A DNA stretch of 20,000 nt. Origin: an uncultured virus (IMG/VR IMGVR_UViG_3300042887_003526) (taxonomy: Duplodnaviria > Heunggongvirae > Uroviricota > Caudoviricetes). The translations under genes were made by a program, and so were the position numbers. Below the pieces are notes generated by a model. That model was not told where the DNA came from, searched no databases, and saw only the letters and a list, made by a program, of their open reading frames with translations. The stretch lies in IMG/VR virus record IMGVR_UViG_3300042887_003526; one strand, written 5' to 3'. Of this stretch, positions 2,235 to 12,899 are shown piece after piece; the stretch's first letter is position 1, and every line of letters begins with the position of its first letter.

Positions 2235-3932
2235 ATGAAAGAAAAAAATTTACCAAAACTTAAAAAAGAAATTCTTAAACTATTTGGAAGTTCTCTTTCA
2301 TTGTCCTCTAATGTGAGTCTTCCGTCTAATGTTATACTTCCTACTGACACAGAAACTGCTCCATTACCAAATGGTACAGGAACTGCAACAGAAAAACCAG
2401 AAGATATCAATATAACAATTGCTTTACCTCAAGATAAAAAGACGAGAAATTACAAGAAAACTGTAAAATCTCTGAAAAATAACAAATCGTATAATATTGA
2501 TATAAAAAAAAATGATATACCGCTTCAACTGTATTTCAATAATTCATACGAAGACCATGTTACACCGGAATTAGTAAAACCTGTAAATTTTATTAATTAC
2601 GGAATCAATAGAATTCAAAATACGAATATAAATTCACCACAATTTAACGAAAGCAAAGTAGTAAACAAAAACAATACTACAGAGGTTTCAAATGTTAAAA
2701 ATAATTTTATAAAAGAATATGTTAAAATTATTGAAAATTACAAATCTAATACAAAACCAAATCAAAATTTTATTCAAAAAGAAAATAAAGTTTTAAATAA
2801 TTTCTTCATAAAACCATATACGTTTTTAACAAATAGCGATGATGTGATATTGCGGACAGAAAATAATATCACTAACAATTCCAATATTACAAACCAAAGT
2901 AATCCGGTTACCAACAGTATCATCACAAACCAAAGTAATCCGGTTACCAACAACAGTGCCATTACAAACCAAAGTAATCCGGTTACCAACAGTATTATTA
3001 CAAACCAAAGTAATCCGGTTACCAACAACAGTGCCATTACAAACCAAAGTAATCCGGTTACCAACAGTATTATTACAAACCAAAGTAATCCGGTTACCAA
3101 CAGTATTATTACAAACCAAAGTAATCCGGTTACCAACAACAGTATCATCACGAACCAAAGTAATCCGGTTACCAATAATAGTATCATCACGAACCAAAGT
3201 AATGCGGTTACCAATAATAGTATCATCACGAACCAAACCAATCCAATTACCAACAATAATACTAGAATTGAAAAAAATACAGTAAACAAAACAAATGCAA
3301 TAGTTCAAGATGTTTCAAACAACAATGCATTTATTGATAATAATGTGACTTTTTTCAAGGAACCAAAATACTTTGACTTATCGTCTGAAATTAATCAACC
3401 AATAATAAACAGATTTAGTTCTATTAAAAATGTTTTACAGCATAGAACAATATCAAATTATCTACAATCCAATAATGTTACAAATGTTCCTGCATTTGAA
3501 TCTGGTGGTATAGTCTCAAAACCAACATTGGCAATGATTGGCGAAAAAGAACCAGAAGTAATAATACCAAAAAGTATTCTTCCAAATCTACTTACAAGTT
3601 CAGATAATAGTCCTATGGAAAAAACAAAAATCAATAGAAAAATTAATTCTTTTATTGACCAAGGAAACATATCATCTCTTCCTGCACTCAAATCAATAGA
3701 TCAAAACAATAAAACAAAGAATCTATTAGAAGTAGAAAAGGAAGAAATAGAACACATGAGGACTATTAGAAACGCCGATAAAAAACAACCAAAACCAACG
3801 GCAGTTTCAAACGAACTTCAAAGCCCAGAAGAAACCATACTTGGCGTAGAAAAAATAACATCCACTAGAGGAATAAAACAATTTGCTCCGCCATTGAATG
3901 GACTTCCTTCGTGGAGACAAAGTACAGTATAA
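2235..3932 (+). CDS. Asn-rich tail protein with internal tandem repeats and a tape-measure-associated motif (gp29-like position)
   Basis: 565 aa, directly after gp51. AFESGGIVSKPTLAMIGEKEPEVIIP (3492-3569) matches the A.GG.V..PT.A..GE.GPE.V.P motif common in tape-measure/tail proteins. Confidence 0.55.
   Translation: MKEKNLPKLKKEILKLFGSSLSLSSNVSLPSNVILPTDTETAPLPNGTGTATEKPEDINITIALPQDKKTRNYKKTVKSLKNNKSYNIDIKKNDIPLQLYFNNSYEDHVTPELVKPVNFINYGINRIQNTNINSPQFNESKVVNKNNTTEVSNVKNNFIKEYVKIIENYKSNTKPNQNFIQKENKVLNNFFIKPYTFLTNSDDVILRTENNITNNSNITNQSNPVTNSIITNQSNPVTNNSAITNQSNPVTNSIITNQSNPVTNNSAITNQSNPVTNSIITNQSNPVTNSIITNQSNPVTNNSIITNQSNPVTNNSIITNQSNAVTNNSIITNQTNPITNNNTRIEKNTVNKTNAIVQDVSNNNAFIDNNVTFFKEPKYFDLSSEINQPIINRFSSIKNVLQHRTISNYLQSNNVTNVPAFESGGIVSKPTLAMIGEKEPEVIIPKSILPNLLTSSDNSPMEKTKINRKINSFIDQGNISSLPALKSIDQNNKTKNLLEVEKEEIEHMRTIRNADKKQPKPTAVSNELQSPEETILGVEKITSTRGIKQFAPPLNGLPSWRQSTV
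2880..3257 (+). repeat. In-frame tandem repeat: 10 units of 36/39 nt encoding S(I/A/N)ITNQSNPVTN(N)
   Basis: Unit lengths 12,13,12,13,12,12,13,13,13,13 aa = 378 nt; core aaccaaagtaatccggttaccaa recurs with no unique spacers. Confidence 0.95.
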
Positions 3933-4981: not shown

Positions 4982-5010
4982 AGTTTACCATAATCTAAAT
5001 ATACAGTCAA
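4982..5010 (-). promoter_or_regulatory. Sigma70-type promoter for ssb
   Basis: TTGACT-N17-TAAACT with TG extended -10. Confidence 0.65.
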
Positions 5011-5237
5011 GAGAAAGGTAAAACATTTTTACTTTTTCGTAAAATGTTTAACTCTTGCCCTTCTTGTTTTAGTTTTTCTAAAACGGGTTGTGTTAATAGT
5101 TTTTGTGCCACCGTAATATCCAAAGAATGTTCCTCCAAAACGGCAATTACTGCATCAATATATGAGGTGTTTTTATTCTTTGCTATTTTATTTTCTACTT
5201 TTTTAGAAAAGTCTTCTTTTGTTATTTCTAGGATCAT
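5007..5237 (-). CDS. gp33: Late transcription coactivator (T4 gp33 family)
   Basis: F...VE..., SYIDAV....EE..., KL....L.EKL..E..ELN.L pattern; 76 aa; adjacent to gp32. Confidence 0.85.
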   Translation of the reverse strand: MILEITKEDFSKKVENKIAKNKNTSYIDAVIAVLEEHSLDITVAQKLLTQPVLEKLKQEGQELNILRKSKNVLPFS

Positions 5238-5244
5238 GTTTGAA

Positions 5245-5272
5245 ATTATAGCACCTTTGGGTGGATTGTAAA
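5245..5272 (-). promoter_or_regulatory. Sigma70-type promoter for gp33, probably giving a leaderless mRNA
   Basis: TTTACA-N16-TATAAT with TG extension; ATG begins 7 nt after the -10 box; no SD. Confidence 0.6.
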
Positions 5273-7610: not shown

Positions 7611-7832
7611 CTATTTTAATTTTTTGGTTTTCTTAGGATTCAATTTATATTTTGATTTTAATAAATCTTTTAATTCATTAAGAGTCTCAATACAATCTAC
7701 TAAAATACAAAGAGTTACGGAGTCTTTGACAACTCCGTAACTCTTTATTATACAGCCGTTAAGTTTTTCTAAATCTCTTTTAGGCTTACCTTTGTAAAGA
7801 TCAAAACTATAAGCAAATGTTACTTCATACAT
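7611..7832 (-). CDS. Hypothetical protein
   Basis: 73-aa ORF; CTAAATA late-promoter-like motif 7 nt upstream. Confidence 0.6.
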   Translation of the reverse strand: MYEVTFAYSFDLYKGKPKRDLEKLNGCIIKSYGVVKDSVTLCILVDCIETLNELKDLLKSKYKLNPKKTKKLK

Positions 7833-7850
7833 TTGCCTATATTTAGTTGT

Positions 7851-8144
7851 TTATCGCTTTACAGTGACCTTCTGCTCGGCGGCAGAGATACGCTCATGGA
7901 GCTTATCAAGTTCACGCCAAAGTGCTTCGGTGTCACGCTCCTCGTTTACTTCAGCAAGACGCTTTTCTGCACAAGACTTGGTTGCACATGCAAACTCCCA
8001 ACAAACAACGGAAGTAATGACTGCACAAGCAGCGAGAAGAGCAATGGCAATATTTGTGTTGCCATTATAAATTGCTGAAGCAGCAAGAATCGAAGAAATG
8101 ACTGATGCTGTAGAAACGGTAACAAACGCATTCTTATTAAACAT
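7851..8144 (-). CDS. Hypothetical membrane protein (two hydrophobic helices plus coiled coil)
   Basis: Start moved to MFNKN (ATG 8144, AGGAG SD) because the ORF-track start lies inside tRNA-Arg. Confidence 0.7.
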   Translation of the reverse strand: MFNKNAFVTVSTASVISSILAASAIYNGNTNIAIALLAACAVITSVVCWEFACATKSCAEKRLAEVNEERDTEALWRELDKLHERISAAEQKVTVKR

Positions 8145-8158
8145 AAAATCTCCTAAAG

Positions 8159-8232
8159 CGTTCCCGAGTGGACTCGAACCACTGACCATTCGCTTAGAAG
8201 GCGAATGCTCTATCCAACTGAGCTACGGGAAC
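8159..8232 (-). tRNA. tRNA-Arg(UCU), no encoded CCA
   Basis: Acceptor GTTCCCG/CGGGAAC+G; D arm GCTC/GAGC; anticodon arm TTCGC-CT TCT AA-GCGAA; T loop TTCGAGT. Confidence 0.96.
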
Positions 8233-8243
8233 TCAACTCAGTT

Positions 8244-8271
8244 ATTATAACAGATAAACGCTATCTGTCAA
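8244..8271 (-). promoter_or_regulatory. Consensus sigma70 promoter for tRNA-Arg
   Basis: TTGACA-N16-TATAAT with TG extension, 11 nt upstream of the tRNA 5' end. Confidence 0.8.
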
Positions 8272-8274
8272 GTC

Positions 8275-8595
8275 TTAAACTGTAAGTTTCAGGTTTGAAC
8301 CACTGATCGGTTCAACGACCTTCTTACCCGGAACAACTAGGCCATTCACTACTACTGTGGTGAAATGATCTTCTAGTTCCTTTTGGGCATTGAGGATAAA
8401 CATAACATTCTTTGTTTCCAACAGAACGCCCTTGCTTGTGTCTGCGTATGGCATCCACTTAGCAAACATCAACTTGCCTTCTGGCGTTGGAATCAAAATG
8501 GTTGGATCCTTGATTTGATATCCACCATCAACTTCGGTAATGTTTCCAATAATCTCTTCACCACTCAACAGACGCACGATTTTTACATTGCTCAT
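8275..8595 (-). CDS. Conserved T4-like phage small protein (probable Sm-like beta fold)
   Basis: MSNVK.VRL.SGEE.I and W.PY motifs resemble a widespread T4-like phage family; AAGGA SD. Confidence 0.6.
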   Translation of the reverse strand: MSNVKIVRLLSGEEIIGNITEVDGGYQIKDPTILIPTPEGKLMFAKWMPYADTSKGVLLETKNVMFILNAQKELEDHFTTVVVNGLVVPGKKVVEPISGSNLKLTV

Positions 8596-8792
8596 AATTT
8601 ATTTTCCTTTATACCAAATGTGGCATTCTTCCACATTCTTAACTGATCAACCCTAAAATGCATAATTCTACTGTCCGACAAAACAACACACCAAATATCA
8701 TTCTCAAACGTGCCACCATCTCTCACATAAATGGCATATCCATCTCCCATCGGTGTTATAACTGGAATTGGATTTTTAAATTCATAAATCAA
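8592..8792 (-). CDS. Hypothetical protein
   Basis: 66-aa ORF (TTG start, GGTG SD-like motif); ATGA overlap with the next gene. Confidence 0.65.
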   Translation of the reverse strand: MIYEFKNPIPVITPMGDGYAIYVRDGGTFENDIWCVVLSDSRIMHFRVDQLRMWKNATFGIKENKL

Positions 8793-8814
8793 AACATCAC
8801 CAAAAAGTTAATTG

Positions 8815-9039
8815 TTACTTACAATCACATTTTCCGATAAATCTATCCCACAAAGAACACTTGGGTGGTTTTGCAATTGGCCAACAAATACCAATCAGAT
8901 TATCTGCCAAGAAAGCAGCATTCTTTTCTTCTAATGCTCTTTCTCCTGCCTTTAACACTTCTTTTTCTGTTAAGAGCATAGGCACACATCTACCGTCAAT
9001 TTCTATCTTTGTAAAATATAATTTCTTTTCTGCAGCCAT
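8815..9039 (-). CDS. Hypothetical protein, Cys-rich C-terminus
   Basis: 74-aa ORF with AAGGA SD. Confidence 0.65.
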   Translation of the reverse strand: MAAEKKLYFTKIEIDGRCVPMLLTEKEVLKAGERALEEKNAAFLADNLIGICWPIAKPPKCSLWDRFIGKCDCK

Positions 9040-9051
9040 TATAGTTTCCTT

Positions 9052-9402
9052 TTATTTTAGTGTCAATAGGTATTTTGTCCTATTTAACGACGAAAGCATT
9101 TCATCTCTTATATTTAGAAGGTCGGTGTCTTGGGTCTGAAGTGTTATAGGTACTTCATTCATTAAGAAACCTATTGCTTCATCAATGACACGGACAGGCA
9201 TACCTTCTTCGTAATTCTCTAAACTAAAATCAAACGGCTCATTTCTTCTACCATATTTTCCAAAATAAACTTCAACAAACTGATCTATGAGATCACTCAA
9301 AGAATCATAGAGTTTACCTAAAGCCTTATGCTCGGCAAAACTTTTAGTCTGCCAGTGAAAGATTCTTATTTGTTCTTGATAATTTATTAATTGTGCTAAC
9401 AT
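9052..9402 (-). CDS. Ferritin/Dps-like four-helix bundle protein (DUF5856-like)
   Basis: HWQT.S.AEHKALG.LYD.L.DL.D.FVE.Y.GKYGR and DLLNIRDEM....N.TKYLLTL motifs. Confidence 0.75.
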   Translation of the reverse strand: MLAQLINYQEQIRIFHWQTKSFAEHKALGKLYDSLSDLIDQFVEVYFGKYGRRNEPFDFSLENYEEGMPVRVIDEAIGFLMNEVPITLQTQDTDLLNIRDEMLSSLNRTKYLLTLK

Positions 9403-9413
9403 AGTGTTTTGAA

Positions 9414-9806
9414 TGGAGGCGGGGGGATTCGAACCCCCGTCTGATCATATTTATTTATACGAACGCTACACGGTTAGTCTTTGTTTGTGCAAGTAGGGGA
9501 ATCAAAGACACTTCCTTACTACAGGTCGAGTTCAGTATGGGTTTCGGATTGTTTACTAACTCTTTCACAATCCTATCCGAATTGAGTCATGGAAAGTTAT
9601 CGGAATACCTTTCCTATGCTTTCTGACGGTCCTAGCCCGCATTAATAGCGTAATCGCTAGTACACTGTGCGCTGTTACTCAAGCAGCAATTGCCATATAG
9701 TTATTATTATTGGCAGTCGTGAGTTTGATTGCTTTTTACGAAGCCTGCAATCTTCTTCGCCGTGCTTTCTTATACTTAATTATGTCATCGATACCATTTC
9801 GCCCCC
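9414..9806 (-). ncRNA. ssrA: tmRNA (ssrA), one-piece, 393 nt, no encoded CCA
   Basis: 5' GGGGGCG pairs with 3' CGCCTCC+A, giving the G3.U70 Ala identity pair; T arm GGGGG-TTCGAAT-CCCCC; internal tag frame ending in Ala-Ala. Confidence 0.93.
9679..9714 (-). other. tmRNA tag reading frame: (A)ANNNNYMAIAA*
   Basis: GCC AAT AAT AAT AAC TAT ATG GCA ATT GCT GCT TGA; same pattern as E. coli ANDENYALAA. Confidence 0.85.
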
Positions 9807-9807
9807 T

Positions 9808-10329
9808 TTAAATTTCTACTCTCATGGTATATTTTTTACCATTACGAGATGCTTTTGTGAGATGTTTGCTCTTTGGCAAAACCATTCCCATGTTTTCTTG
9901 GTGACCCATTGTGGCGCGAATATGACCAACTGGTTTTCTTATCCCGCGACCACTATGCCCATGCGCCCATACTGTTATGAATCCGCTCGGACTTGGATCT
10001 AGTCTTTCAACATGATGTGTCTTCCCGGATGGAGTCACATACATCATAGAAGGTTCCATGTCGCCACCCCAATGGTGCTTCATCAAATATGCATCCGAAA
10101 CAGAACCTTCTAAATCAGGAGAATCGGCATGCGACACAACAGCAATACTATCATCATTTTTTATGGAATCCATAATCGACTGATGGGTTTTACTTGCAAT
10201 CTTCATTCTATTTTCCCTAGCAATTTCTCCGGCAGCTTGCTTCTGAGGATCTGCCTTTGGTCTTTGGTACTCATAGTTCCAATATTCGTTTAGTACTAGG
10301 TGTGTTAAAATATCTCTAAGAGTCTTCAT
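9808..10329 (-). CDS. Late hypothetical protein, possibly capsid-internal
   Basis: TATAAATA late promoter and GGAG SD upstream; N-terminus MKTLRDIL...NE weakly resembles a capsid-targeting sequence. Confidence 0.65.
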   Translation of the reverse strand: MKTLRDILTHLVLNEYWNYEYQRPKADPQKQAAGEIARENRMKIASKTHQSIMDSIKNDDSIAVVSHADSPDLEGSVSDAYLMKHHWGGDMEPSMMYVTPSGKTHHVERLDPSPSGFITVWAHGHSGRGIRKPVGHIRATMGHQENMGMVLPKSKHLTKASRNGKKYTMRVEI

Positions 10330-10344
10330 GGTTTCTCCTAGAGA

Positions 10345-10352
10345 TATTTATA
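10345..10352 (-). promoter_or_regulatory. T4-type late promoter TATAAATA
   Basis: Exact gp55 consensus, 15 nt upstream of ATG 10329. Confidence 0.75.
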
Positions 10353-10667
10353 TTAACTCATCGCTTTGAATTTGACACAGAAGAATCCTTCTGTCTGAAG
10401 TGGCACAACTGCCAAATCGGTGATCTTTGGGAAAGATCTTTTTTCCCCCAAAAACACATCATTATTCATTACAAATGGGCCACCCTCAAAATCGATATAT
10501 TCGACATCGGTTTCGTCGCCTCCTACACGATAATAATTACTCTTACCGAGCAGATAAAATGTGCCTTTTTCGACATTACATTCATAAACATCACGCTTGT
10601 CGCCGTAACGACTGCGGAAAGAATCAACGAGTGTGGTATTTTCGAGAATTTGTTCTAAGTTTTGCAT
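10353..10667 (-). CDS. Hypothetical protein
   Basis: Start moved to MQNLEQ (10667) because the ORF-track start is inside tRNA-Glu; contains a D.EGGPF motif. Confidence 0.65.
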   Translation of the reverse strand: MQNLEQILENTTLVDSFRSRYGDKRDVYECNVEKGTFYLLGKSNYYRVGGDETDVEYIDFEGGPFVMNNDVFLGEKRSFPKITDLAVVPLQTEGFFCVKFKAMS

Positions 10668-10673
10668 GGTGAA

Positions 10674-10747
10674 TACACCCACGGGGACTCGAACCCCGAC
10701 TCACCGCCTTGAAAGGGCGGGGATTTAACCAGTTAATCTATGGGTGC
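10674..10747 (-). tRNA. tRNA-Glu(UUC), no encoded CCA
   Basis: Acceptor GCACCCA/TGGGTGT+A; anticodon arm CCGCC-CT TTC AA-GGCGG; T arm CGGGG-TTCGAGT-CCCCG. Confidence 0.94.
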
Positions 10748-10757
10748 AGTTGTTTAT

Positions 10758-11114
10758 TTACTTGATCTTCTTACCAACGGCCTTACGCATCTTCCTCTTT
10801 GAAGGTGCAGGACGGGCATTTCCACCGACTACCTGATATGAAGTTTCCTTTGCAAAGAGTTTGGAAACATCAATCTTTGTCGGAATCGAAACTACCTTGG
10901 CCTTCACCTTCTTTGCAAAATGGCGATCCACGCGGTTAATTACGCCTGGGATCCCATAAAATACAATAGCTGTGACCAAGTAATTAGTTCCATGTGCAAG
11001 GGTGAGAGAAGGCATAAATCCTGCATTGCAAACCAGGCCAGCAGTTGCGTAAATTCCCGCCATTCCGAAACAACAACCCTTAATAACGCCATCAAAAATT
11101 TCCTTTGAGTCCAT
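10758..11114 (-). CDS. Hypothetical membrane protein with basic C-terminus
   Basis: Start MDSKE (11114) with AAGGA upstream; two hydrophobic segments. Confidence 0.6.
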   Translation of the reverse strand: MDSKEIFDGVIKGCCFGMAGIYATAGLVCNAGFMPSLTLAHGTNYLVTAIVFYGIPGVINRVDRHFAKKVKAKVVSIPTKIDVSKLFAKETSYQVVGGNARPAPSKRKMRKAVGKKIK

Positions 11115-11130
11115 TTTTCTTTCCTTGTAA

Positions 11131-11355
11131 TTATCGTGCGCGGGCATTCATACGCTGAGCCCTACGCAGATTCTCTTTGTCGCCTGAAGAAATCATCACA
11201 AGTTCTGGCGCAGTCTTGTGATACCAATCCATGAAACCGACCATCGGCTTCACATCCGAACACTTTACACAAGTGTTTGCATTTGGAAGTGCCTCAAGAC
11301 GAGCCTGAGGAATTTGCTTTTTGCAATTGTCGCAGTAACAGATCATCGTTGCCAT
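11131..11355 (-). CDS. DksA/TraR C4-type zinc-finger protein
   Basis: CDNCKKQIPQARLEALPNANTCVKC matches C..C...IP..RL.A.P....C..C. Confidence 0.8.
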   Translation of the reverse strand: MATMICYCDNCKKQIPQARLEALPNANTCVKCSDVKPMVGFMDWYHKTAPELVMISSGDKENLRRAQRMNARAR

Positions 11356-11356
11356 G

Positions 11357-11551
11357 TTAGTTTGCCCTTTCAAATCGAAACTTGATTGTCTTACATTCAA
11401 CACGCTTTTCGCCGTCTATGTGCATTTTGCGTTGCTTGAGAATTCCCTTGTTCCAACCGAACGGCTTACAAACCGTTGCATTGTGCTTGCGAACAAAGAA
11501 ACCCTCACGCTCTGCTTCCAAATCAATGCTGTCAATGATACGCTTTGCCAT
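11357..11551 (-). CDS. Hypothetical protein (64 aa, MAKRIIDSID...)
   Basis: The longer ORF-track frame runs through a promoter and a tRNA; first ATG after the tRNA is 11551. Confidence 0.6.
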   Translation of the reverse strand: MAKRIIDSIDLEAEREGFFVRKHNATVCKPFGWNKGILKQRKMHIDGEKRVECKTIKFRFERAN

Positions 11552-11554
11552 GAA

Positions 11555-11626
11555 TACGCGATTCAGGAATCGAACCTGATTGAACCGATTATAAGTCGGC
11601 CTGCGAAAACCGTCCGCCCATCGCGC
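11555..11626 (-). tRNA. Atypical tRNA-Ile(UAU), no encoded CCA
   Basis: Acceptor GCGCGAT/ATCGCGT+A; D stem GCGG/TCGC; anticodon arm GCCGA-CT TAT AA-TCGGT; T arm TCAGG-TTCGATT-CCTGA; has its own promoter. Confidence 0.8.
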
Positions 11627-11639
11627 AAGTTGTCTCATA

Positions 11640-11668
11640 AGTATACTACTAATGAGACTCAGTGTCAA
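11640..11668 (-). promoter_or_regulatory. Sigma70 promoter for tRNA-Ile(UAU) and downstream genes
   Basis: TTGACA-N17-TATACT, 13 nt upstream of the tRNA 5' end. Confidence 0.78.
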
Positions 11669-11912
11669 GTAAATTTTTCAAGTTAATTCTGCTCTTCTTG
11701 GTTGCGGCATGACCTGCGGCGTCCAAAATGAGGTAATTTCTTGGCTGCCGATCTTCATCGTGGCCAAGCCGATAATTAACTTGTTCGACTGAAAGTCCGA
11801 TAAGTTTACTCTTATTGGACTCAATACATGCCTGAACAATCTTGTTGGCAATTTCTGCCGCTTGCTCGGTAGTCATCGTTTCAATCGGTACATCAATGAA
11901 AAGTCTATACAT
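11649..11912 (-). CDS. Hypothetical protein
   Basis: 87 aa; GGAGG SD; TAATG overlap with the deaminase. Confidence 0.7.
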   Translation of the reverse strand: MYRLFIDVPIETMTTEQAAEIANKIVQACIESNKSKLIGLSVEQVNYRLGHDEDRQPRNYLILDAAGHAATKKSRINLKNLLDTESH

Positions 11913-12274
11913 TAGTCCTCCAGTTTAACAATTCCATCGTCCGTTGTATAGTAAATTCTGTCGAAAACTTCTCTGCACCAAGGCATACAAAGTTCACATG
12001 GGCGAGACATTCGAATGTGCCCAAATTTATTATAACGAACATTAATCAGATCCAACTTGCATCCACGAAATTGCCTTGGAACTTTCCTGAACGCATCAAG
12101 TTCGGAATGCATTTCTTCAAATGGATATCCGATCTCTTTGGCGCGTGGATGAGTCTTGAACATATTTCTGCCAACAGAAATTACTCTGTTGCGATGCACA
12201 ACAAGGCTAACATGCTTTTTCTGCCTTGGTATTTCAAGACAAAGTGGGTATGCGTATGCTAGAAAGTTTTTCAT
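11912..12274 (-). CDS. Zinc-dependent cytidine/dCMP-deaminase superfamily protein
   Basis: H-x-E (HSE) and PCxxC (PCELC) motifs; G.N...THP; I.YTT. Confidence 0.8.
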   Translation of the reverse strand: MKNFLAYAYPLCLEIPRQKKHVSLVVHRNRVISVGRNMFKTHPRAKEIGYPFEEMHSELDAFRKVPRQFRGCKLDLINVRYNKFGHIRMSRPCELCMPWCREVFDRIYYTTDDGIVKLED

Positions 12275-12738: not shown

Positions 12739-12810
12739 AGCCGCCTACTGGATTTGAACCAGCAACCTATGCTTTACAAAAGCATTGCTCTACCGTTGAG
12801 CTAAGGCGGC
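12739..12810 (-). tRNA. tRNA-Thr(UGU), no encoded CCA
   Basis: Acceptor GCCGCCT/AGGCGGC+T; anticodon arm ATGCT-TT TGT AA-AGCAT; T loop TTCAAAT. Confidence 0.95.
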
Positions 12811-12826
12811 AACCCAAATTTTCAAA

Positions 12827-12899
12827 TGCCTCCAACAGGGATCGAACCTGTGACCTATCGGTTAAAAGCCGAATGCTCTACCAGCTGAGCTATAGAGGC
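12827..12899 (-). tRNA. tRNA-Lys(UUU), no encoded CCA
   Basis: Acceptor GCCTCTA/TGGAGGC+A; anticodon arm TCGG-CT TTT AA-CCGA; T arm ACAGG-TTCGATC-CCTGT. Confidence 0.95.

Follow-up and report, generated by a model that had tools for sequence, protein, structure and literature searches.

Three protein-coding genes of a freshwater T4-like myovirus begin 3, 6 and 11 nt after the 3' ends of a tRNA-Ile, a tRNA-Glu and a transfer-messenger RNA (tmRNA) respectively, and this arrangement suggests that excision of the three RNAs by RNase P and RNase Z may yield short-leader mRNAs that are read from their 5' ends, a reading that, judged from sequence, we regard as evenly poised. The genes lie in a 20,000-nucleotide window (the whole stretch of DNA analysed) that is part of a 29.5-kb uncultured virus contig (IMG/VR record IMGVR_UViG_3300042887_003526). 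The contig carries T4-like genes for gp32, a baseplate hub, a tail tube and head closure; its gp32 is closest to that of Pelagibacter phage Mosig (57%), followed by those of cyanomyoviruses (54%), and no near-identical record for the window DNA was found among cultured phages. The genes, RNA genes and promoters of the window described below are on the minus strand.

ARAGORN called five tRNAs in the window, Ile(tat), Glu(ttc), Arg, Thr and Lys. Those at two of the junctions were also matched by Rfam: tRNA-Ile(UAU) (11555..11626; G1:U72) at 11626..11555 with 39.2 bits (cut-off 29), only with laxer filters, and tRNA-Glu(UUC) (10674..10747) with 64.8 bits. The third RNA gene is a one-piece tmRNA (9414..9806), called by Rfam (RF00023) at 9806..9411 with 119.4 bits (cut-off 47); the covariance match is accompanied by tRNA-like ends with G3:U70, by pairing of GGGGGCG with CGCCUCC and by a tag frame, ANNNNYMAIAA, the tag given by ARAGORN in the related loci L004 and L015. 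An Rfam run at the gathering threshold missed tRNA-Ile, and ARAGORN missed the tmRNA of the window yet called its orthologues in those two relatives. ARAGORN also extends Ile and Glu by one base at both ends; the extra T(-1):A73 pair that this creates for Ile, Glu and Lys is absent from relatives and was rejected, and the Rfam boundaries of Ile and Glu equal those of an earlier, first-pass annotation.

The discriminators, an A in each case, fall at 11555, 10674 and 9414. Beyond them the Ile junction reads TTC (11552..11554) and then ATG (11551), the Glu junction TTCACC (10668..10673) and then ATG (10667), and the tmRNA junction TTCAAAACACT (9403..9413) and then ATG (9402), so the junctions and the spacing of 3, 6 and 11 nt reported in the first-pass annotation are borne out. 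It had further described the RNA genes as CCA-less, and indeed CCA is encoded by 0/6 of the tRNA-type genes of the window (the five tRNAs and the tmRNA), whose trailers begin TTC, TTC, TTC, CTT, TTT and TGG (TT or CT in relatives); as in RNase Z substrates, there is neither CCA nor a CC right after the discriminator. At its other end the tmRNA starts, as also noted there, 1 nt after the stop codon of the gene at 9808..10329 (TAA at 9810..9808, one A, then G+1 at 9806). The statement that none of the trailers has a Shine–Dalgarno (SD) sequence stands for Ile and tmRNA (-0.3 kcal/mol) but has to be qualified for Glu, where the 3' strand of the acceptor, GUGGGUG, pairs with the anti-SD at -6.9 kcal/mol; that strand, however, belongs to the acceptor stem, and Glu trailers of 5, 6 and 9 nt set it nearer to or farther from the ATG.

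Homologues show that the ATGs at 11551, 10667 and 9402 are the true starts. The alternative that the proteins start at downstream SD-led codons, named at first pass as one that would undo the idea, was checked, and the alignments place the starts at the ATGs next to the RNA genes. The 64-aa protein encoded after tRNA-Ile (MAKRIIDSIDLEAEREG... family; 11357..11551) is 97% identical in L004, and the best conservation among 13 aligned homologues is in the N-terminal 17 residues. The 104-aa protein encoded after tRNA-Glu ('SRYGD...EGGPF' family; 10353..10667) aligns from Met1 with its L004 orthologue (53% identity), and an in-frame GTG within tRNA-Glu is out of frame in a relative with a 5-nt trailer. 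For the 116-aa DUF5856 gene after the tmRNA (9052..9402), an accessory gene, the Pfam match spans residues 16–113 and the next in-frame start is residue 35. Open frames cross tRNA-Ile (11357..11668 (-), 103 aa, TTG) and enter tRNA-Glu (10353..10682 (-), 109 aa, GTG); public clusters of the 104-aa protein are 107–112 aa long, so that gene callers seem to put starts within the tRNA. Neither the 64-aa nor the 104-aa protein has a Pfam or PHROGs match. A tblastn search of cultured phages with the 64-aa protein gave no match, and its identity with T4 Cef (modifier of suppressor tRNAs) was ruled out, as the two do not align.

The anatomy around the three junctions gives good support to the view that everything from tRNA-Ile to the DUF5856 gene is a single co-transcribed early operon. 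A near-consensus sigma-70-type promoter (TTGACA-17-TATACT, 11640..11668, 11/12 matches), with its predicted start ~7 nt before tRNA-Ile, is kept in relatives, its -10 being TATAAT in L004. It is followed in order by tRNA-Ile, the 64-aa gene, a 74-aa DksA/TraR-type zinc-finger gene (11131..11355; PF01258, E 8.9e-07) whose ATG is 1 nt past the stop of the 64-aa gene, a 118-aa gene (10758..11114) with an SD-like AAGGAAAG that ends 10 nt short of tRNA-Glu, tRNA-Glu itself, the 104-aa gene, a 173-aa gene (9808..10329) led by an SD (TAGGAGAAACC-ATG), the tmRNA and the DUF5856 gene. No terminator-like site was listed on the minus strand between 11640 and 8086, and contigs from RNA libraries run from gene to gene across tRNA-Glu (10639..10799) and across the tmRNA (9198..9937).

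Spacing between tRNAs and ATGs was surveyed across related phages, as the first-pass annotation had proposed, and short SD-less junctions recur. Close relatives keep the operon layout, and the Ile gap is 3 nt in 12/12 tRNA-abutted loci (some of them contigs present in two collections), with the letters TTC, CTT or TTT. Other spacers vary within the same genomes (Glu 5, 6 or 9 nt; Lys–Thr 14–16 nt), and the invariance of the Ile gap points to more than chance. The cloverleaf of tRNA-Ile, in which 84/84 cells pair with two compensatory pairs (eight aligned sequences, four of them distinct), marks it as a real gene. The Glu trailers of relatives read TTCACC, TTCACT, TTCATT, TTAAA or TTTAACAAT, are 5, 6 or 9 nt long and carry no SD; in L038 a different gene begins 5 nt past tRNA-Glu. 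Those of the tmRNA read CTAAAGG.. and TTAAAGG.., and the gap between the stop of the 173-aa gene and the tmRNA is 0 nt in L004, L015 and L035 (1 nt in the window). An RNase P cut here would end the 173-aa message on, or 1 nt past, its stop codon, right before the gene of a ribosome-rescue RNA.

The DUF5856 gene is cleanly deleted in the near-identical L002, L005 and L036, and L004 and L015 have none at all; without it the next gene begins 14–15 nt past the tmRNA, with AAGGA. The deletion leaves the first eight DUF5856 codons joined to sequence ahead of a 12/12 consensus promoter (9038..9066 (-)) at the end of this gene; the -10 of that promoter, TATAAT, overlaps the ATG of the next gene (9039), and its transcripts would begin within that next open reading frame (ORF). 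Distant T4-like relatives have genes 11–16 nt past tRNAs, and most of these trailers contain GGAG or AGGAG; L021 and L023 have a 16-nt trailer after tRNA-Ile with merely a weak GGAA. Of the examined genes that lie 11–22 nt past a tRNA or tmRNA, the majority have an SD in the trailer. Among the loci examined there thus appear to be two modes, gaps of about 11 nt or more that usually contain an SD and gaps of 11 nt or less that do not, the 11-nt SD-less trailer ahead of DUF5856 being an exception. In L014 tRNA-Glu is followed by an ORF (MSRKQNHRKFGRRRK..., 3336..3440) for a very basic peptide of 30 aa, with a strong GGAGG, and then by a 104-aa family gene. The tmRNA is one-piece in the clade of the window, unlike that of more distant relatives (L026, L027, L040, L119 and others), whose tmRNAs are permuted, in two pieces, and carry the tags ANEMRIAA, ANRLAMAA or ANRMAMAA.

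The 5' contexts of the 64-aa family were scored in a set of 100 loci consisting of the best 80 of 306 metagenome matches, 19 viral loci and the window. A tRNA-Ile followed by 3 nt precedes the gene in 12/100 loci, an SD motif lies 3–12 nt upstream in 53/100 and none of the scored contexts is found in 10/100. In a further 24/100 the gene abuts a promoter (>=10/12) with a spacing of exactly 6 nt between the end of its -10 and the ATG, and one more locus has the same promoter type with the -10 8 nt before the ATG. All 24 promoter-abutted loci carry a pyrimidine at -1; from this and the 6-nt gap, transcription is expected, on sigma-70 geometry, to start at the A of the ATG. Fourteen representatives of this class were inspected for longer frames: 13/14 have an in-frame upstream stop 12–33 nt away, and the only other in-frame starts are TTG in two and GTG in one. 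On a tree of 69 distinct proteins (two rows dropped for length or X; the label 'S' also covers loci without a scored context) the tRNA-abutted genes form a single clade (100/96), with the 8-nt promoter locus as its sister group (89/79; this branch is not starred), and the promoter-abutted class needs at least three changes. Orthology between the promoter ahead of tRNA-Ile and that of the leaderless homologues was considered and is not established, the upstream ORFs being different. The 104-aa family has a similar range of contexts: tRNA-Glu at 5, 6 or 9 nt, many SD-led forms, a -10 box that precedes the ATG by 7 nt in L122 and L123, and tRNA-Gln at 2 nt in L119–121 versus 12–13 nt with AGGAG in L133 and L135.

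The promoter-at-ATG geometry extends beyond these two families. In G001, a 156.7-kb relative record that is 70% complete and contains L015, 11 of 99 promoter-like sites (>=10/12) have an ORF-opening ATG 6–7 nt past the -10, compared with 0.91 expected (binomial P 2.5e-9); the 11 ORFs encode 67–492 aa and have a pyrimidine at -1. The window has one such gene, likewise with a pyrimidine at -1, a 76-aa gene (5007..5237) with the site TTTACA-16-(TG)TATAAT, 7 nt and then the ATG at 5237 (gene and site, 5007..5272), and its G001 homologue (site 1621) shares the geometry but not the spacer. Together these counts suggest that early mRNAs without a leader are frequent in this clade of T4-like phages. 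G001 also has tRNA-abutted genes of its own, a 230-aa ORF 3 nt past tRNA-Pro and an 89-aa ORF 5 nt past tRNA-Asn.

In the processing that we propose, host sigma-70 RNA polymerase would start ~7 nt ahead of tRNA-Ile, RNase P would cut the 5' end of each tRNA, and an endonuclease, most likely host RNase Z, would cut past the discriminator and free the 3' ends for CCA addition. The mRNAs left by the same cuts would begin with a 5'-monophosphate at 11554, 10673 and 9413 and have SD-less leaders of 3, 6 and 11 nt; they would be read by the 5'-end-dependent (leaderless-type) initiation used elsewhere by the phage group, and translation of these genes would in this way be coupled to tRNA maturation. 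The cuts, the enzymes and the dependence of translation on cutting are what we infer from the features observed directly, namely the anatomy, the true starts, their conservation and the promoter-at-ATG geometry of relatives. A CCA-less tRNA can receive its CCA only once its 3' end coincides with the discriminator, and as 0/6 of the RNA genes encode CCA, a cut at this position would be required in any case. At a gap of 3 nt just such a cut would yield both a tRNA and an intact message, for the gene would be destroyed if cleavage fell farther along and the end were then trimmed back. Many genes in the phage group evidently lie at 5'-terminal AUGs, and the host can therefore probably read such ends. 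CC or CCA trailers block RNase Z, according to PMC7479834 (citing Pellegrini et al. 2003). After Glu and tmRNA the cost of unfolding the start region is 0.0 kcal/mol (random 10th percentile 0.10). The first-pass proposal of tRNA processing thus draws support from the anatomy, as regards co-transcription, and from the relatives, which make 5'-end reading plausible; the 'TTCA' motif that it described is not conserved. More tentative, though possible, is a broader view in which leaderless translation is a regular early-gene route in the clade and tRNAs are self-removing inserts between promoter and start, whose removal restores a translatable 5' end; one transcript would become tRNA plus message, protein would be made only after tRNA maturation, and the arrangement, independent at Ile, Glu, Pro, Asn and Gln, would be the bacterial-virus counterpart of mitochondrial punctuation.

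Several observations weigh against excision followed by 5'-end reading. The first-pass annotation had 'TTCA' standing in place of CCA, which holds in the window, but 'TTCA' is a coincidence of the window because the trailers of relatives read otherwise (CTT, TTT, TTAAA, TTTAACAAT). SD-less ORFs (weaker than -2.5 kcal/mol) make up 30% of the ORFs of the contig in a rough call (n=47, a list that omits the 64-aa gene, displaced by a longer antisense ORF), so that a missing SD is not special by itself. In Caulobacter reporters (PMC8459731), each added 5' base approximately halves leaderless initiation, with translation initiation efficiency TIE = 0.45 x i^-0.91; by our own arithmetic that formula puts a 3-nt leader at ~17%, a 6-nt one at ~9% and an 11-nt one at ~5%. 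Opening the start region of the 64-aa gene costs 4.8 kcal/mol, which is not particularly low against a random median of 3.55, and the 64-aa family tree, built on 66 columns, is unrooted. Neither a CCA-adding enzyme (PF01743) nor RNase Z (TIGR02651) was found in 2/2 partial relatives, 70% and 54% complete, while the RNase Z family was matched in 14/14 control genomes; the enzymes would therefore have to be the host's. Lastly, 19 freshwater metatranscriptome runs match parts of the region, and in the four examined, from four studies, a 740-nt contig (9198..9937) spans both tmRNA junctions, another (10639..10799) spans tRNA-Glu with both flanking genes and a third (7826..9244) spans tRNA-Arg. These are assembled contigs, which do not show the ends of molecules and may include DNA, and those that bridge junctions must derive from uncut RNA (or DNA). 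Contigs within the tmRNA occur in 4/4 runs, and the ends of two of them, at 9796 and 9798, are near the predicted 5' end at 9806; 11511..12274, including tRNA-Ile, has no cover in the four runs, and no conclusion is drawn from this.

Bridging contigs are what would be expected if compaction were combined with SD-independent initiation on an uncut polycistron, at open A/U-rich starts, with tRNA maturation a competing fate and no prerequisite. This explanation, which we consider somewhat unlikely, also fits the ~30% share of contig ORFs without an SD, the fully unstructured starts after Glu and tmRNA, and the poor performance of short leaders as leaderless substrates in the Caulobacter data. Against it, a folded tRNA 3–6 nt before an AUG should, to judge from ribosome footprints, hinder 30S binding; the Ile gap is exact in all 12 loci; the same gene lies at predicted transcript 5' ends in 24 relatives; and tRNAs without CCA have to be cut at the discriminator, any later cut hitting the gene where the gap is 3 nt.

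The gaps might instead be functionless, as the neutral relic of tRNA insertion into a packed genome, with the downstream genes weakly expressed or dispensable. Such a relic would agree with the deletion or absence of the DUF5856 gene in several relatives, with the differing genes that fill the slot after tRNA-Glu and with the packing of ORFs among tRNAs in T4 and T5 too, but we think it improbable: the 64-aa protein is 91–100% identical across the clade while a neighbouring protein falls to 53%, its family has an invariant N-terminus and is kept in 100 loci or more, and the G001 gene placed 3 nt past tRNA-Pro encodes 230 aa. That the 3' strand of the acceptor stem acts as an SD in precursors that have not adopted the tRNA fold is very improbable, for although GUGGGUG of tRNA-Glu pairs with the anti-SD as given above and G001 tRNA-Asn ends GGAGGA 7 nt before its ATG, there is nothing SD-like in tRNA-Ile (AUCGCGU), tRNA-Pro (CUUCUCCG) or the tmRNA (CGCCUCC), the Glu trailer ranges from 5 to 9 nt and the stems are stable and conserved.

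Excision of tRNA-type RNAs to leave short-leader messages, the reading that we prefer, invites comparison with animal mitochondria, in which RNase P and RNase Z/ELAC2 excise tRNAs from polycistronic transcripts (PMC8601606). As there, tRNA genes abut mRNAs in one transcript, with gaps of 0–11 nt here; stop codons adjoin the next tRNA-type gene or are 1 nt away from it; and the downstream mRNAs would be SD-less and near-leaderless. The window has this layout throughout the three junctions, with gaps of 10 and 6 nt around tRNA-Glu, 1 and 11 nt around the tmRNA and 3 nt after tRNA-Ile, one promoter and no internal terminator-like site. Unlike the mitochondrial case, the system would be that of a phage relying on host enzymes, its leaders would be 3–11 nt long rather than 0–3, its processing is predicted, and the operon is punctuated in part, with SD-led genes mixed in.

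The tRNA regions of T5 and T4 likewise have small ORFs among tRNAs, on one strand and behind early promoters, and an ORF may end there 5 nt from, or within, the next tRNA. By subtraction from the annotations, the 12 tRNA-to-coding-sequence gaps of T5 without an annotated promoter are 13–34 nt, the gap after tRNA-Thr, holding P11, is 74 nt, and segB of T4 begins 41 nt past tRNA-Ile. These gaps leave room for an SD, and one junction of our window is of the same kind: tRNA-Arg(UCU) (8159..8232), directly behind its own 12/12 promoter (8271..8244), is followed after 14 nt by a gene (7851..8144) with the SD AGGAG (8154..8150) inside the trailer. The SD-less junctions of 3, 6 and 11 nt fall outside this T4/T5 type, with its gaps of at least 13 nt and SD room. 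In Escherichia coli, the operon thrU-tyrU-glyT-thrT-tufB combines tRNAs with an mRNA behind a single promoter, and processing separates them; tufB has a normal leader with an SD, and tight SD-less abutment is not a known feature there.

Leaderless mRNAs of bacteria, such as those of Caulobacter (PMC8459731) and Deinococcus deserti (PMC4007540), share with the predicted messages a start codon near the RNA 5' end, the lack of an SD, a preference for AUG and an open start region, and in relatives of the phage the same gene is positioned for transcription to begin, by prediction, with the A of its AUG. They differ in that the phage 5' ends would come from cleavage, as 5'-monophosphates, with 3–11 extra bases, a leader length that lowers leaderless initiation several-fold in published reporters. 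Strictly, a leaderless mRNA has its start codon as the first triplet; the three junctions, with predicted leaders of 3, 6 and 11 nt, do not have this geometry, which fits just the promoter-abutted homologues and the window ORF at 5007..5237, on their predicted starts. The RNA genes resemble RNase Z pre-tRNA substrates in having no CCA and no CC past the discriminator (trailers begin TT here, CT in some relatives), with the difference that the trailer is predicted to be the functional 5' end of an mRNA and not a discarded piece. The layout, then, works like mitochondrial punctuation and extends the packing of T4/T5 tRNA regions to SD-less junctions of 2–11 nt; it is not strict leaderless mRNA.

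Phage tmRNAs behind early promoters are already known (PMC9004378). In the literature searches made, no description of mRNAs made by tRNA excision, or of leaderless mRNAs, was found for T4-like phages, nor one of the present layout for phages in general, and in PMC9004378 and PMC12801897 the word 'leaderless' occurs just in the reference lists. If the proposed processing is true, phages make messenger 5' ends by tRNA excision, a logic so far tied to organelles, and a whole group of abundant T4-like phages of lakes and oceans depends on leaderless initiation to express early genes. It would then also inform on the translation machinery of the hosts of these phages and change gene calling, gene finders extending these ORFs into the tRNA; and the occurrence of the same gene in SD-led, promoter-abutted and tRNA-abutted forms would be a natural test of short leaders and 5'-monophosphate ends.

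Elsewhere in the window, the CCA-less tRNA-Lys and tRNA-Thr (12739..12899) have a promoter, not a gene, as the next element; the 174-nt leader before tRNA-Lys, which contains no gene, is no more stably folded than shuffled sequences (z -0.57). A T4-late-promoter-like TATAAATA lies 5–6 nt before the ATGs of two SD-less genes (the 18290 region of the window (-) and 27872 of the contig), a placement which hints that some late genes may likewise be near-leaderless.

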